A stretch of 64,000 nt of DNA from Elusimicrobiaceae bacterium. GTDB taxonomy: Bacteria; Elusimicrobiota; Elusimicrobia; Elusimicrobiales; Elusimicrobiaceae. Shown here piece after piece: positions 5,531 through 61,898 of this stretch. A program made the position numbers and the translations under genes. The notes below the pieces were generated by a model. The model saw only the letters and a program-made list of their open reading frames with translations. It was not told the DNA's origin and searched no databases. The DNA lies in assembly GCA_045129775.1 (NCBI GenBank), contig JBGUOO010000041.1, positions 1,545-65,544 of the forward strand, in the 5' to 3' direction. Position 1 is the first letter of the stretch; every line of letters begins with the position of its first letter.

Positions 5531-5560
5531 TTTAGTTTCTCCTGTGAACGACATACTAGG

Positions 5561-5588
5561 AGTGTACCAAAAAAAAAAAACAAGTCAA
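5561..5588 (-). promoter_or_regulatory. Sigma70-type promoter with a T12 tract in the spacer
   Basis: TTGACT-TG(T12)GG-TACACT, 16-nt spacer; near-identical copy at 48247-48273. Confidence 0.75.
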
Positions 5589-5684
5589 GCGTTTCCAAGC
5601 CACGGAATTTCCGCGCTGGCCATATACCTTAAATCTTTTAGTTAGTGACCGCGAGAAGCTCGGCAAAAAATGGGACCACGTTTT

Positions 5685-9600: not shown

Positions 9601-9882
9601 CTGTTTTTGGAACCGTACGAAGAATACGGGGTAGCTTGAAATTTCAAGCACCGCACTACTCCAAAGACAGCCGAAATTAAGACGCAAAATGAACGGATTA
9701 ATTACCCGGTTGTTTTGCGTCGAATGTTTGCCACGCAAGTGGTAAACTACGGCTGTTGTATGGAGTACCGTAGTGCGGACTCTTGTATAGTCAGCCGTTT
9801 TTGTTGGTTTCATAAGCAGAAAATTGAAAATGTAAGTCAGGTGTAAACCTGACAATATAAGGAGAAAAACTTATGAAATCAA
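9601..9882 (+). ncRNA. Structured pilin leader, copy A (candidate cis-regulatory RNA)
   Basis: P1 9601-9610/9661-9670; P2 CCGTA-CGAAGAA-TACGG; terminator 9749-9802; start-codon hairpin 9804-9816/9870-9882. Confidence 0.85.
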
Positions 9883-10487
9883 GAAATGTAAGCTTATTAG
9901 ACAACCCCTCACCACGGTGCTGGCGCACTCGTCCTCTCCCACAAGGGGCGAGGAGTATAACCCGCGGGTTTACCCTTATTGAGCTGTTAGTCGTCGTACT
10001 AATTATCGGAATTTTGGCCGCGGTGGCGGTGCCGCAGTATAAACAGGCCGTACTCAAAAGCCGTATGAGTACCATGATGGCCAACGTTAAAACTATCGTC
10101 AATGCACTGGAAGTATATTATTTAGCCCATGGAGAATATCCCAATGATGATGTGACAGCATTAGATATTGAAATCGGCAATTGTTCTTCCGTGGGTAATG
10201 GCACATTTAATTGTACCCACGAAAGCTATGATTACCAGGGGGAATCTTCAAACGCAGTAGGTGGTTTCTTAAAAAACAACAATGGCCTAGCTTATTTACA
10301 ATATCCTTTACATGATATGAATACTGCCAAACAAGGAACCCGTGAATGTTGGGCGGACATAAACAATACGGCAGCTAATAATGTATGCAAATCGTTAGGA
10401 GGCACCCCAAATGGTACCTCTAGCTGGCGAAAAGAAAAGAAACAGAATCATACCACGGGTAACTGGACCATTTATAAACTTCCCTAA
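9873..10487 (+). CDS. Type IV pilin (PilE-like) with a palindromic insertion in the leader peptide
   Basis: G|FTLIELLVVVLIIGILAAVAVPQYK; SD AAGGAG. Confidence 0.92.
   Translation: MKSRNVSLLDNPSPRCWRTRPLPQGARSITRGFTLIELLVVVLIIGILAAVAVPQYKQAVLKSRMSTMMANVKTIVNALEVYYLAHGEYPNDDVTALDIEIGNCSSVGNGTFNCTHESYDYQGESSNAVGGFLKNNNGLAYLQYPLHDMNTAKQGTRECWADINNTAANNVCKSLGGTPNGTSSWRKEKKQNHTTGNWTIYKLP
9905..9953. repeat. BoxC/REP-like palindrome, in-frame inside the prepilin leader
   Basis: Matches 48322-48370 except at 2 positions; encodes PSPRCWRTRPLPQGAR. Confidence 0.85.
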
Positions 10488-18869: not shown

Positions 18870-19109
18870 TTGTTTTTGGAACCGTATGTAGAATACGGAG
18901 GACTTTTGGAAACAAAAGTTTTATGCGAGTCCAAAAACAGCCGATTTAGGCACACAAAGGCGACGGCCCGCGTGTGCCGAATGTTTCCCGCACTTGTTGC
19001 GGGAACTACGGCTGTTCCCGTTGGGTTCACTCGCATAAACTCCGGTGGCGACAGCCGTTTTTGCATACACGTTTCCAAAAAAGAATAATAGGAAAAATGT
19101 ATGCAAAAA
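18870..19109 (+). ncRNA. Structured pilin leader, copy B
   Basis: P1 18870-18879/18931-18940; terminator 19008-19062; 12-bp start-codon hairpin 19058-19069/19098-19109. Confidence 0.85.
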
Positions 19110-23036: not shown

Positions 23037-23254
23037 CTGTTTTTGGAACCGTATAAAGAATACGGACTCTTTTGATAGCAAAAGTTTGATTCGCGTCCGA
23101 AAACAGCTGTTATAGGCACAAAATAGTGGAACTTATAATCCCACCGTTTTGTGCCGAGTGTTTATCGTTTTGCGATAGGCCACGGCTGTTATTGTAGGGA
23201 GTGCGAATCAACCCGGCAGTAGTGGCCGTTTTTAAATGCGTTTTTCAAAGACAG
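23037..23254 (+). ncRNA. Structured pilin leader, copy C
   Basis: P1 23037-23046/23097-23106; terminator 23182-23233 with several G-U pairs; downstream P1-complement 23244-23254. Confidence 0.85.
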
Positions 23255-23283: not shown

Positions 23284-23787
23284 ATGAAAAACGTAAAAAA
23301 ACAGGGTTTTACCCTTATAGAGTTGTTAGTAGTAGTGCTCATTATCGGTATTTTGGCCGCAGTAGCCGTGCCGCAATATAAACAAGCCGTACTGAAAGCT
23401 CACTTCATAAAAGTGTTTCAAATAGCTCAAAATATGAAAAAAACCGCAGACTTATATTATTTACAAAACGGCCAATATAAAGACGGCCTGCTCACCGAAT
23501 TAGATATTGACTATAAAAAGATATGTAAAGGAGATAATAACGCACTCAAATGCGAGAAAGGATTTGTAATTGACCCAAATCCCACCAATCTTTTTCTCTA
23601 TTATAGCCCAGATATTACTTTTTCCATGGGCTATGTAGCAGCTATGCAAACTTACGAAAATACCCCTAAACAAAACCGTTTTGCGATGCATATCTATTTT
23701 AACCATACGGCACTTTCCAATCAAATAGTTTGTGCTAGTTCAGGGAATGTATCCCTCTGTAAAAAAATGTTAAGTGGAATAAAATAG
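23284..23787 (+). CDS. Type IV pilin (PilE-like)
   Basis: G|FTLIELLVVVLIIGILAAVAVPQYK; SD AAGGAG before ATG 23284. Confidence 0.92.
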   Translation: MKNVKKQGFTLIELLVVVLIIGILAAVAVPQYKQAVLKAHFIKVFQIAQNMKKTADLYYLQNGQYKDGLLTELDIDYKKICKGDNNALKCEKGFVIDPNPTNLFLYYSPDITFSMGYVAAMQTYENTPKQNRFAMHIYFNHTALSNQIVCASSGNVSLCKKMLSGIK

Positions 23788-43925: not shown

Positions 43926-44062
43926 AAAAAATCCTGTATAAAATTTTCTATATTTTAGAAAATTTCACACGGTCAAGCCAAGTAAAAAAACAGACTATTT
44001 CGCAAGCTAAAAAATTATGTTACAATGAAAATGAAGTAAAGAAGTAAAACAGAAAATTTAAT

Positions 44063-44303
44063 CTGTTTTTGGAACCGTACGAAGAATACGGCTTACTTTT
44101 GGAATACCAAAAGTTTGCGCAACGCCAAAGACAGCTGTTTGAGGCATGGAGTAGGTGGAATTGCAAGCCAACTATTTCATGCTTAGTGTTTGCTATCCGC
44201 AAGGATAGCAAGCCGCGGCTGTTATATGTGGGAAAGGTTGCGCAATTCCAGGTATGATAGCCGTATTTTTCGGTTTCTCCAAAAACAGCAAAAAGGAGAA
44301 ATC
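44063..44303 (+). ncRNA. Structured pilin leader, copy D
   Basis: P1 44063-44072/44125-44134; terminator 44215-44270; SD hairpin 44272-44280/44295-44303 overlapping TCCAAAAACAG. Confidence 0.85.
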
Positions 44304-44305
44304 AA

Positions 44306-44824
44306 ATGAAAAAAGTAGTAAGAGGTTTCACCCTCATTGAGTTGTTAGTTGTTGTTCTCATCATCGGCATATTAGCCGCAGTGGCCGTGCCGCAATATAA
44401 AATGGCCGCCGACAAATCCCGCCTTGCTAATCTGCGTTCAATGGCAAGTGCAGTAGCAAAAGCCCAAGAAGCCTATTATTTGGCTAATGGTACATATACC
44501 CGTAACTGGGAGGAACTGGCCATCTCTTTCCCGGGGAAATTAGGTAGTACCAGTGTTCAGAATAATGTCCTTTCATCAAATGAAGGCTGGATACTTACAC
44601 TTGGATCATATAACAATGTTACAGCAACAAATTCTCACCTTCCGGATATTACAATACATCATTTTTATCCCCACCACCCGGGTGCTCGATACCAAAACAA
44701 ACAGGCCTGCTATGCCTTAGCTACCAATTTGTACGCCGACAAATTATGTAAAAGCTTGTCCTCAAAAAACACATGGGACACTCAAGCAGGCTATGGCAAA
44801 GACAATGTTTACATATTAGACTAA
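44306..44824 (+). CDS. Type IV pilin (PilE-like)
   Basis: G|FTLIELLVVVLIIGILAAVAVPQYK; SD AAGGAG. Confidence 0.92.
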   Translation: MKKVVRGFTLIELLVVVLIIGILAAVAVPQYKMAADKSRLANLRSMASAVAKAQEAYYLANGTYTRNWEELAISFPGKLGSTSVQNNVLSSNEGWILTLGSYNNVTATNSHLPDITIHHFYPHHPGARYQNKQACYALATNLYADKLCKSLSSKNTWDTQAGYGKDNVYILD

Positions 44825-48246: not shown

Positions 48247-48273
48247 AGTGTACCAAAAAAAAAAAACAAGTCA
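48247..48273 (-). promoter_or_regulatory. Sigma70-type promoter with a T11 tract in the spacer
   Basis: TTGACT-TG(T11)GG-TACACT, 15-nt spacer. Confidence 0.75.
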
Positions 48274-54418: not shown

Positions 54419-54664
54419 CTGTTTTTGGAACTATATGTAGAATATAGAGCGCTTTGGAAGAAACCAAGCACAAAGAAAGTCCAAAAATAGTCGTTAAAAG
54501 GCACGAACGGGTCTCGAGCCCCGCTCGTGCCGAATGTTTCCCTTTTTGCCTAGGCAAAAAGGGAGATTACGGCTGTTTTGCGGGGTTACTTTCTTTGGCT
54601 CTGTATTCCAGCCGTTTTGCATATACTCCAAAAGCAGATATGAAGGAGAAAAGTATATGCAAAA
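54419..54664 (+). ncRNA. Structured pilin leader, copy E
   Basis: P1 54419-54428/54481-54490; P2 with two compensated pairs CTATA/TATAG; terminator 54569-54618; 12-bp start-codon hairpin 54615-54626/54653-54664. Confidence 0.85.
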
Positions 54665-55355
54665 CAAAAATCAAAAGTTGTTTCCTGTCCCCCTTGCAGG
54701 ATGCTTAGCGCACAATGTCGCTTTTACCTCGCCCCTTGTGGGAGAGGATGCCCGCAGGGCAGGTGAGGGGTTAGCCGTTATAGGTCAGACACTTCCTAAC
54801 AGTGTCCCGGTTAAGGGGCATACAGCCGCATTCACCTTAATTGAGCTCTTAGTGGTTGTGCTTATTATCGGCATATTAACGGCGGTAGCCGTCCCGCAAT
54901 ACCAAAAAGCCGTCTGGAAAAGCCGCTATGCCACTATCAAAAATCTAACCAAAAGTTTAGCTGATGCCGAGGGAGTATATTATTTGGCTAATGGGAGCTA
55001 TACCCTCGATATCAGCAAGCTAGACCTAAATATGCCGACGCCTACTTCTTCGGATTCAAATGATCGGTATAGTGTCTTTTATTACCCTTGGGGATTTTGT
55101 GCATTAGAAATAGTAGAAAATACAACAGCAGATGTTCAATGTATATTAAAAGATGAACATCTTTCAACAGATTATTATGACCAACGGTTCCTTGGTTATT
55201 TTACCTATTTTAGCCATTCCAACCGTCTCCCCGGGCAAACTACTTGTGTGTCGTATGGACCGCATACCGCTCTACCTTATATGATTTGTAAAAGTGAAAC
55301 CGGACTATCCGAACCTTCTTACACGCATACCAATTACCTACGTTGGTATTATTAG
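54657..55355 (+). CDS. Type IV pilin (PilE-like) with a palindromic insertion in the leader peptide
   Basis: A|FTLIELLVVVLIIGILTAVAVPQYQKAV; SD AAGGAG before ATG 54657. Confidence 0.92.
   Translation: MQNKNQKLFPVPLAGCLAHNVAFTSPLVGEDARRAGEGLAVIGQTLPNSVPVKGHTAAFTLIELLVVVLIIGILTAVAVPQYQKAVWKSRYATIKNLTKSLADAEGVYYLANGSYTLDISKLDLNMPTPTSSDSNDRYSVFYYPWGFCALEIVENTTADVQCILKDEHLSTDYYDQRFLGYFTYFSHSNRLPGQTTCVSYGPHTALPYMICKSETGLSEPSYTHTNYLRWYY
54727..54770. repeat. BoxC/REP-like palindrome (inverted), in-frame in the prepilin leader
   Basis: Reverse complement CCCCTCACC...CCTCTCCCACAAGGGGCGAGG shares both ends with 9905-9953; encodes SPLVGEDARRAGEG. Confidence 0.8.
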
Positions 55356-61164: not shown

Positions 61165-61350
61165 CTATTTTTGAACCGTATGTGGAATACGGGAATGCTT
61201 CGCAAGGAGCTTCGGACAAGCCAAAAATAGCCGCTTGAGGCACAACAAGGAACGCGTCTTTGTTGTGCCGAATGTTTCCTATTTTTAAATAGGAAACTAC
61301 GGCTATTTATGGGGTTTTCCTTGTCCGAAGCCCGGTAAACAGCCGTTTTT
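61165..61350 (+). ncRNA. Structured pilin leader, copy F
   Basis: P1 CTATTTTTG 61165-61173 / CAAAAATAG 61222-61230 (compensated A-T pair); terminator 61299-61350. Confidence 0.85.
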
Positions 61351-61394
61351 GTTTGCTTGCCGGGCTCTACCTAGTAAACTAAAGGACAAGAAAA

Positions 61395-61898
61395 ATGAAA
61401 AATAAACAAGCGTTTACGCTGATTGAGTTATTAGTAGTGGTGTTAATTATCGGCATATTGGCGGCGGTAGCCGTGCCACAGTACCGAGTAGCTGTTCGCA
61501 AAGCAGATTTGTCGCGCTATATGGCTTTGGTAAGCGCCGTTTATGAAGCACAACAAGTTTATTATCTTGCTCATGGAAAATATTCTAATAAACTTACAAA
61601 TTTGGATATATCTATGCCCATTACAGAGGAATGTACTCTTTCTACAACCAAAGACAGTGAAGATACCTACTATTGTAACTCTGCAAAGATGGGAATATCT
61701 GATTTAGGAACTAGTATCCAGGCGGGTTCTGATGAAATTCGATATGTAAAATTTTTACAAGACCGAACTGCACATGAAATTACTTTTAAACAAGGAACCA
61801 CCTACTGTTTTGCAAAAGGTGATATTTCCAAAAAAGCATGCCAAGCGTTCGGCGGCAACTTCTTAGGTGAAGCTACGTGGGCCTATTATCAACTGTAA
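61395..61898 (+). CDS. Type IV pilin (PilE-like)
   Basis: A|FTLIELLVVVLIIGILAAVAVPQYR; SD AAGGA. Confidence 0.92.
   Translation: MKNKQAFTLIELLVVVLIIGILAAVAVPQYRVAVRKADLSRYMALVSAVYEAQQVYYLAHGKYSNKLTNLDISMPITEECTLSTTKDSEDTYYCNSAKMGISDLGTSIQAGSDEIRYVKFLQDRTAHEITFKQGTTYCFAKGDISKKACQAFGGNFLGEATWAYYQL

Follow-up and report, generated by a model that had tools for sequence, protein, structure and literature searches.

A leader RNA before Elusimicrobiaceae pilin genes whose first strand may link opening of the ribosome-binding site to antitermination

The stretch of DNA analysed here (the window) comprises 64,000 nucleotides of an Elusimicrobiaceae bacterium (GenBank assembly GCA_045129775.1, contig JBGUOO010000041.1, positions 1,545 to 65,544, forward strand) and contains copies, named A to F, of a structured leader RNA that lies upstream of type IV pilin-like genes. 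Positions 44263-44310, with which we are mainly concerned, are the stretch from the terminator of copy D to the ATG (44306) of a type IV pilin-like gene starting MKKVVRGFTLIELLVV. An earlier note, made from the letters alone, had proposed that a hairpin in this stretch (H) buries the translation start, that it carries a further complement of the first strand of the leader (P1-5′) and that one switch would thereby control both transcription and translation; the coordinates given there for copies A, B, C, D and E were all exact on re-checking. The elements of copy D, including the Shine–Dalgarno sequence (SD) and the strand that masks the ribosome-binding site (RBS), are the following.

43999..44026, + strand: promoter-like site, from a consensus scan only, with TTCGCA, a spacer of 16 nt, TACAAT and a TG before the −10 element.
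44063..44073, + strand: P1-5′ strand, CTGTTTTTGGA, which has two alternative partners, P1-3′ and the downstream complement.
44124..44134, + strand: P1-3′ strand, GCCAAAGACAG, the 3′ end of which is shared with the antiterminator strand.
44215..44270, + strand: terminator as it appears in the P1-forced fold, with 5′ arm GCGGCTGTTATA, 3′ arm TATGATAGCCG and then TATTTTT.
44266..44280, + strand: anti-RBS strand, which is the 5′ arm of H (TTTTTCGGTTTCTCC; UUUUUCGGUUUCUCC) and begins within the terminator U-tract.
44278..44288, + strand: exact reverse complement of P1-5′, TCCAAAAACAG, covering the top of the H 5′ arm and the loop.
44295..44313, + strand: 3′ arm of H, comprising the SD GGAG (44295-44298), GGAGAAATC, the ATG (44306-44308) and the first codons.

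The transcript of copy D is predicted, by the promoter consensus scan only, to start ~30 nt upstream of P1-5′. Its 5′ untranslated region (UTR) contains an intrinsic terminator, ACGGCUG...CAGCCGUUUUU, which is kept in all copies and forms in folds in which P1 is forced; a simple terminator scanner overlooks it because its loop exceeds 8 nt. A competing antiterminator helix, in which AACAGCCG at the end of P1-3′ pairs with CGGCUGUU, is seen in minimum-energy folds or in folds in which P0, the pairing of P1-5′ with the downstream complement, is forced. No conserved leader open reading frame is present, and the reading of the element as a leader peptide was rejected, the ATG inside the P2 hairpin not being conserved. 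Two further complementarities were noted around the terminator. In copy D, 44080-44093 and 44259-44272 (consensus GAAUACGG and CCGUUUUU) are complementary, the P2 loop and 3′ arm matching the terminator 3′ arm and U-tract; in the minimum-energy fold CGAAGAAUACGGCU pairs with AGCCGUAUUUUUCG, and the ON fold would re-pair the entire 5′ domain with the 3′ end of the leader. In copy B, complementarity between the variable linker that precedes P1-3′ (UUUAUGCGAGU) and the terminator loop (ACUCGCAUAAA) extends the predicted antiterminator far past 9 bp, with partners at ~18918-18945 and ~19005-19040.

An nhmmer profile built from five window copies, which when aligned have a mean identity of ~62%, was searched against the 1.5-Mb, 49-contig metagenome-assembled genome from which the window comes. 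The search returned 102 copies of the leader RNA. This genome encodes 194 pilin-type N-termini (FTLIELLVV) in 1.5 Mb, ~95 of them behind the structured leader and ~99 without it. Every evaluable leader copy is followed by a gene start on the same strand, and pilin-like genes, with GFTLIELLVVVLIIGILAAVAVPQY, make up nearly all of them. Of the 96 genomes of the genus, 89 have the leader according to a covariance model of the 5′ domain, which also matched another genus of the family and a distant family within the phylum. Searched with Rfam 15 at the gathering threshold, the whole window yielded only two tRNAs and no leader family; at E <= 10 nothing relevant was found over copy D, GEMM-I/II (c-di-GMP-I/II) being unmatched, and a literature search for an Elusimicrobia pilin leader RNA found nothing. 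The leader is an RNA family absent from Rfam and from the literature searched. Genomes with 1-15 leader copies (L016, L032, L010, L005, L031, L036, L018, L011, L021 and L039) also have non-pilin genes behind it: two N6/N4 DNA methylases, an HSDR_N protein, a SNF2 + PLD helicase-nuclease, two sulfatase-family membrane proteins, and BamE-like, TM2 and zinc-ribbon proteins. As a set, these recall typical phase-variable or defence and surface genes.

In copy D, the partners of the H 5′ arm are GGAGAAAUC, which holds the SD at 44295, and the first codons; GGTTTCTCC and GGAGAAATC are paired with each other. The predicted energy of this hairpin is −12.2 kcal/mol (z = −3.83), and none of 200 shuffled sequences was as stable. 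When the segment from the terminator to ATG+12 was folded for 94 copies of the same genome, the mean z was −3.1, z was below −2 in 72% of the copies and the SD or the AUG was paired in 82%. The arms vary among copies yet remain complementary (GCAUACGUUCUCC/GGAGAACUGUAUGC, UAUACUCC/GGAGUAUA and GUUUCAUAAG/CUUAUGAAAC); cognate halves pair at −14.2 kcal/mol, as opposed to −9.6 kcal/mol for non-cognate halves (z = −20.6; median rank 9 of 154). H is therefore a conserved structure with variable sequence, and the hairpin that the earlier note placed over the SD and AUG just after the terminator is borne out well beyond copy D.

Most copies share a consensus after the terminator: an anti-SD (UCC or CUCC), then AAA(N)CAG and often then (A/U)AAAUUGAAA. 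The duplex of P1-5′ with the post-terminator segment has an energy of −7.8 kcal/mol, compared with −5.4 kcal/mol for dinucleotide shuffles and −4.9 kcal/mol for permuted P1-5′, and both the CAG/UAG end and the ACC extension occur more often than in shuffles. As a control for the specificity of the complement, other 5′ UTRs from this genome were used; each set was scored for its duplex with the 14-nt strand CUGUUUUUGGAACC and for the motif YC-R(3-5)-YAG, with the following results.

Leader-bearing UTRs (n = 92): mean duplex energy −10.1 kcal/mol, motif in 38%.
Leaderless pilin UTRs (n = 76): mean duplex energy −5.2 kcal/mol, motif in 1.3%.
Other SD-bearing UTRs (n = 712): mean duplex energy −5.9 kcal/mol, motif in 1.4%.

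The complement of P1-5′ (CUGUUUUUGGA) is specific to leader-bearing 5′ UTRs. The 5% background threshold is exceeded by 54% of the pilin-associated copies of this genome and by 69% of the copies from relatives. The claim that another complement of P1-5′ lies at the arm or loop of H accordingly stands, with an exact match in copy D and energies well separated from those of both control sets. Copy F, which had been described as degenerate, is indeed so. The elements of H and of the complement in the other window copies are as follows.

9804-9816 / 9870-9882, + strand: hairpin H of copy A, 13 pairs (12 Watson–Crick, 1 G-U) over the ATG at 9873.
9808-9819 and 9821-9826, + strand: loop of H in copy A, TTTCATAAGCAG and AAATTG.
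19058-19069 / 19098-19109, + strand: hairpin H of copy B, 12 pairs, plus TTTCC/GGAAA.
19073-19081, + strand: partial complement in copy B, TTCCAAAAA.
23244..23254, + strand: complement in copy C, TTCAAAGACAG, which pairs fully with P1-5′ when G-U is allowed; the gene starts at 23284.
54615-54626 / 54653-54664, + strand: hairpin H of copy E, 12 pairs, plus CTCC/GGAG.
54627-54637, + strand: complement in copy E, TCCAAAAGCAG.
61165..61397, + strand: copy F, with the variant P1-5′ CTATTTTTGA and neither H nor complement; it belongs to a subfamily that has neither.

Homologues elsewhere, which the earlier note had pointed to as a check, retain the segment. The complement is seen in sampled leader copies of other genomes of the genus, and in the few-copy genomes the motif is often a perfect UUUUCCAAAAACAG. 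Copies from the distant family repeatedly carry (A/U)UCCAAAAAC(A) 10-55 nt upstream of non-pilin genes, with a mean of −8.0 kcal/mol versus −5.3 kcal/mol in background windows (p = 1.4e-7) and 5 of 18 passing the 5% level; conservation there is weaker than in the genus. In two members of that family (L126 and L150) the post-terminator complement UCCAUAAACAG is followed directly by its perfect partner CUGUUUAUGGA, the two making up a 12-bp stand-alone hairpin that mimics P1. A second pair of complementary words flanks the first. The word (A)CAAUUU lies 3-4 nt upstream of P1-5′ in nearly all copies, and RAAUUG lies 1-2 nt after CAG in 33 of 91 copies, 7.7-fold over its genome-wide density; the upstream CAATTY is present in 32 of the 33 copies with the downstream RAATTG (Fisher p = 5e-4, which is only indicative for paralogues). 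This CAAUUU/AAAUUG block may be taken as indicative support for a long-range helix; in some copies TATACT/TACAAT appears to be the sole promoter-like element.

To compare the two states of the leader, each full 5′ UTR of 154 copies was folded with either P1 or P0 enforced, and the antiterminator accompanied the P0 state. Enforcing P0 over 24 nt gives a state that is less stable by a mean of 5.4 kcal/mol, of a total near −98 kcal/mol; with 14 nt enforced, P0 costs +1.6 kcal/mol relative to P1 (mean of the 96 strong-complement copies) and is the more stable state in 33 of those 96. Forcing P0 raises the unpaired fraction from 0.51 to 0.79 for the SD and from 0.24 to 0.82 for the AUG across the 154 copies, and the SD and AUG are both fully open in 53% of P0-forced folds, as opposed to 3% of P1-forced folds. 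Without constraints, 36 of the 154 copies, D and E included, have the P0 + antiterminator state as their minimum-energy fold. In copy D, the minimum-energy and centroid structures agree: 44063-44073 is paired to 44278-44288, the antiterminator is present and the final 32 nt, in which the SD and AUG lie, are single-stranded. As modelled, the P0 helix is mutually exclusive with P1 and with H, and the P0 fold is predicted to be nearly isoenergetic with the fold that combines P1, terminator and H, which supports a bistable design.

These results suggest a mechanism in which the segment from the terminator to the start codon would be the second output module of a two-state leader RNA. In the OFF state, P1 (CUGUUUUUGGA : UCCAAAAACAG) and the terminator would form, and any leaked read-through RNA would fold H, with the anti-RBS 5′ arm paired to the SD and AUG. 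In the ON state, the terminator 5′ arm would capture the 3′ end of P1-3′ as the antiterminator, and the freed P1-5′ would pair ~200 nt downstream with ..UCC-AAA(N)-CAG, that is, with the top of the anti-RBS arm and the adjoining loop. In many copies this helix could be extended both ways, inward to ACC(G) and outward through CAAUUU / AAAUUG. P0 would strip the anti-RBS strand from H and thereby expose the SD and AUG, and a single refolding decision would set read-through and translation together. In a kinetic view, P1 would form first during transcription and favour termination; if the terminator 5′ arm captured P1-3′, P1-5′ would be free as the anti-RBS strand emerged. We infer that P0 forms in vivo and that it acts in cis. 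To the reading as a whole, a long-range helix in cis between the first strand of the leader and the anti-RBS strand that couples translation to the antitermination decision, we give about an even chance.

Several observations weigh against this reading. All of the energies are nearest-neighbour predictions, and the copies are paralogues, so p-values are inflated. A strong complement is missing in ~40% of copies; between UCC and CAG there are 3 to 5 A's, which forces bulges. Across copies, having H is not associated with having the complement (Fisher p = 0.27). The distant family has the complement 10-55 nt from the start with no clear RBS hairpin, and RBS opening may therefore not be its sole or primary role. 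The long-range pair, for which the earlier note had looked to covariation in a larger set of copies, shows almost none: of the 22 copies with a variant strand, 5 have a strand that pairs more strongly than the consensus with the downstream segment of the same copy, and 12 have one that pairs less strongly. Pair covariation lacks power here because P1-5′ is nearly invariant, being CTGTTTTTGGA in 75 of the 102 copies of this genome and in 83 of 84 from relatives (158 of 186 in all), and P1 itself has a cognate advantage of only 0.25 kcal/mol. Substitutions in the motif comprise 129 transitions and 81 transversions, whereas those at P1-3′ positions 2-11 stand at 82 to 3 and are nearly all wobble-compatible. 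Where UGA(A) replaces GGA, in one subfamily, P1-3′ compensates (GUCA), the downstream complement is lost and H is lost in 7 of 8 copies. The only clean triple compensation is that of L052_3529, in which UUUAGGA finds a match in both partners, CCUAAAAACAG in P1-3′ and CUCCUAAAACC downstream. Over 24 nt, into P2, RNAduplex gives −15 to −25 kcal/mol, with apparent compensations in C20_880, C21_24711 and C15_52789; over the 15 nt beyond P1-5′, cognate pairing amounts to −6.56 versus −6.02 kcal/mol (an advantage of ~0.5) and rare variants rank at the median. Copy-specific pairing into P2 was dropped as largely generic, and no covariation is claimed for it. The support for P0 is thus conservation and energetics, not covariation, and the weak covariation and the lack of association between H and complement lower our confidence that RBS opening is the selected function. 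Of the claim that one switch governs both transcription and translation, the elements, their exclusivity and the predicted opening of the SD and AUG hold, and the covariation and the association of H with the complement do not.

The same facts could be accommodated if P0 forms but mainly locks the antiterminated fold or buries the 5′ end, with an effect on mRNA stability, and H is an independent, constitutive damper of translation. We regard this as possible but doubtful. It would fit the distant family, which retains the complement at a variable distance from the start and shows no evident RBS hairpin, the lack of association between H and complement, and two leaderless pilins of the window that have a small anti-SD hairpin, CUCCU/AGGAG, from which the motif is missing. 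However, in most copies before pilin genes the complement coincides exactly with the end of the anti-RBS arm nearest the loop, the AUG is freed in silico when P0 is forced and the GA(A) P1 subfamily is without both H and the complement.

Rather unlikely, in our estimate, is that the repeated word UCCAAAAACAG, present in P1-3′ and near the RBS, is the site for a factor acting in trans, either a protein or the ~100 abundant terminated leader RNAs through CUGUUUUUGGA, which would coordinate antitermination and translation across loci. P1 is sequence-invariant over two families of the phylum, which is unusual for a helix that needs only pairing, but invariance is also expected where each strand fits two partners. 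A trans factor would be consistent with motif substitutions that are not strongly wobble-restricted and with ~100 near-identical P1-5′ strands per cell. By contrast, the CAAUUU/AAAUUG block and variants of the wobble type, UUCAAAGACAG among them, are more in keeping with base pairing than with a factor that reads one fixed word, and no candidate factor was identified.

The repeats might also act as DNA, either as an invertible switch (cwpV/fimS-like) that flips the terminator-bearing leader or as relics of the terminal repeats of a miniature transposon; we consider this very unlikely. CTG...CAG inverted repeats do flank a ~215-bp terminator-bearing segment upstream of surface-protein genes, the genes behind the leader in few-copy genomes include those for DNA methylases and surface-modifying enzymes, of a kind that is typically phase-variable, and ~100 loci that are mostly OFF would leave one orientation in assemblies. 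All 181 evaluable copies in the assemblies, however, face their gene and lie between promoter and gene start. The DNA repeat is exact over 11 nt in copy D, yet across copies it averages 11.2 nt at 90% identity with an A-run of 3-5. The five window copies aligned are only ~62% identical, the two arms of H match copy-specifically, and a switch acting purely as DNA would leave the antiterminator without a function. The sense RNA has the better complementarity, by 4.4 kcal/mol over the antisense RNA, a difference that is partly compositional; as a test of RNA against DNA, this asymmetry in the sense and antisense duplexes was replaced by the transition and transversion counts, which only mildly favour RNA pairing. 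An invertible DNA switch is unlikely as the main explanation. Descent from miniature inverted-repeat transposable elements was rejected on the same low identity and copy-specific H arms, on the uniform sense orientation between promoter and gene start and on flanks that are not direct repeats. Finally, it is barely credible that composition or coincidence accounts for the pattern, any anti-SD (UCC/CUCC) with an A-rich loop looking complementary to a U-rich strand that ends in GGA: the U-run of P1-5′ does find A-rich partners even in shuffled sequence (model positions 7-13), but the complementarity is missing both from the leaderless pilin UTRs and from the 712 SD-bearing UTRs of other genes in this genome, the CAG/UAG end and ACC extension exceed shuffles and the complement is conserved in other genera.

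Other features of the pilin loci were noted alongside the leader. Most of the ~99 leaderless pilins have a TTGAYTTG-T(10-13)-GGTACACT / GTTATCAT promoter in which the poly-T spacer is long, and their short 5′ UTRs fall into several distinct types; examples in the window are at 5552-5590 and 48247-48273, minus strand. A second type of structured leader, with a CUUUCCAGU...ACUGGAAAG stem and a GACGA...CGUC terminator, precedes a few pilin genes on contigs C19 (+, ~11.6-11.8 kb), C39 (+, ~19.8-20.0 kb) and C6 (−), one of which has UUCCGAAACAG immediately 5′ of its SD. Many prepilins carry long N-terminal extensions of the recurring peptide blocks NNPSPALPGILSHKGRGKQ, CPPCGENVGLPTKRGAYKAFSLMSPSIGPADHFLRKGGR and FTSPLEGEDARRAGEG (window 9873-9975 and 54657-54800, and many other contigs), which resemble translated palindromes of the repetitive extragenic palindromic type between the start codon and the prepilin cleavage motif. 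Some leader copies have GC-rich palindromic insertions of 80-140 nt between terminator and SD, sometimes 5′ of the P1-5′ complement (contigs C37 ~3969, C4 ~15730 and C28 ~20669; relatives L055 and L050); these look like small mobile repeats.

Among known systems, the B. subtilis trpEDCFBA leader, the target of TRAP, combines transcription attenuation with control of trpE translation by long-distance refolding (PMC11602163, citing Du & Babitzke 1998). There, transcripts that escape termination have the first gene's SD masked by a hairpin just 3′ of the terminator, as H would do here, and the SD-masking strand has an alternative partner upstream in the leader that is itself a segment of the termination decision, such that one event sets both levels. 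The relay that the earlier note called unusual follows the same logic as the trp leader, and the word was too strong. The Elusimicrobia RNA, unlike the trp leader, has an unrelated fold and occurs in ~100 copies per genome before pilin genes. A search for TRAP (MtrB, PF02081) gave no hits in the genome of the window, the B. subtilis control being positive, and none of the 102 copies has five or more (G/U)AG triplets spaced 2-3 nt. The trp leader is the closest functional analogue, in the sense of the same way of working and not of family membership.

The B. subtilis fmnP flavin mononucleotide riboswitch has both an SD-sequestering hairpin and an intrinsic terminator (PMC11602163). Riboswitches of this type resemble the pilin leader in that one sensor domain governs both the terminator and access to the SD. 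They differ from it in that the SD hairpin of the pilin leader is a separate module after the terminator, and its proposed opener is the 5′-most strand, acting over ~200 nt. In trp-type attenuators (1:2 / 2:3 / 3:4) and in erm/cat translational attenuation, chains of mutually exclusive helices reach the terminator or the SD. The pilin leader likewise relays its decision through exclusive helices, but it does so without a leader peptide and with six strands and two outputs. Invertible leader switches precede surface proteins in Clostridioides difficile cwpV and E. coli fimS, and one cwpV orientation creates a terminator. As in those systems, inverted repeats flank a ~200-300-bp leader upstream of surface-structure genes; in contrast to them, the repeats of the pilin leader are short and degenerate, no flip was seen in 181 loci, and copy-matched H arms and an antiterminator are present. 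C. difficile pilA1 has a c-di-GMP-II riboswitch upstream (PMC6366702). It shares with the present case a structured, terminator-controlled leader before a type IV pilin gene, and differs in that the pilin leader lacks a GEMM-I/II match at E <= 10. The proposed coupling is a variation on a known regulatory logic, in an RNA family absent from Rfam and from the literature searched.

The leader adds a second, unrelated example of the long-distance refolding logic best known from B. subtilis trp, and it illustrates how strands with several partners freeze sequence, which limits covariation tests. A further-reaching idea, which we consider improbable, is that the 5′ strand is a built-in mimic of the RBS (an anti-anti-RBS) in a phylum-wide, riboswitch-like device and that pairing in trans could link the ~100 paralogous pilin loci, which have the 11-nt strand and its downstream complement in common. 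If this were true, leader RNAs would pair with the anti-RBS motif of other loci, creating a post-transcriptional network that chooses which pilins are translated, by mutual exclusion or co-activation. In Elusimicrobia of the gut and rumen, 1.5 Mb of genome can hold as many as ~190 type IV pilin-like genes, and the leader stands before about half of these. Coupling termination to masking of the RBS may be how so many surface-protein genes could stay tightly silent and then be freed by one signal.

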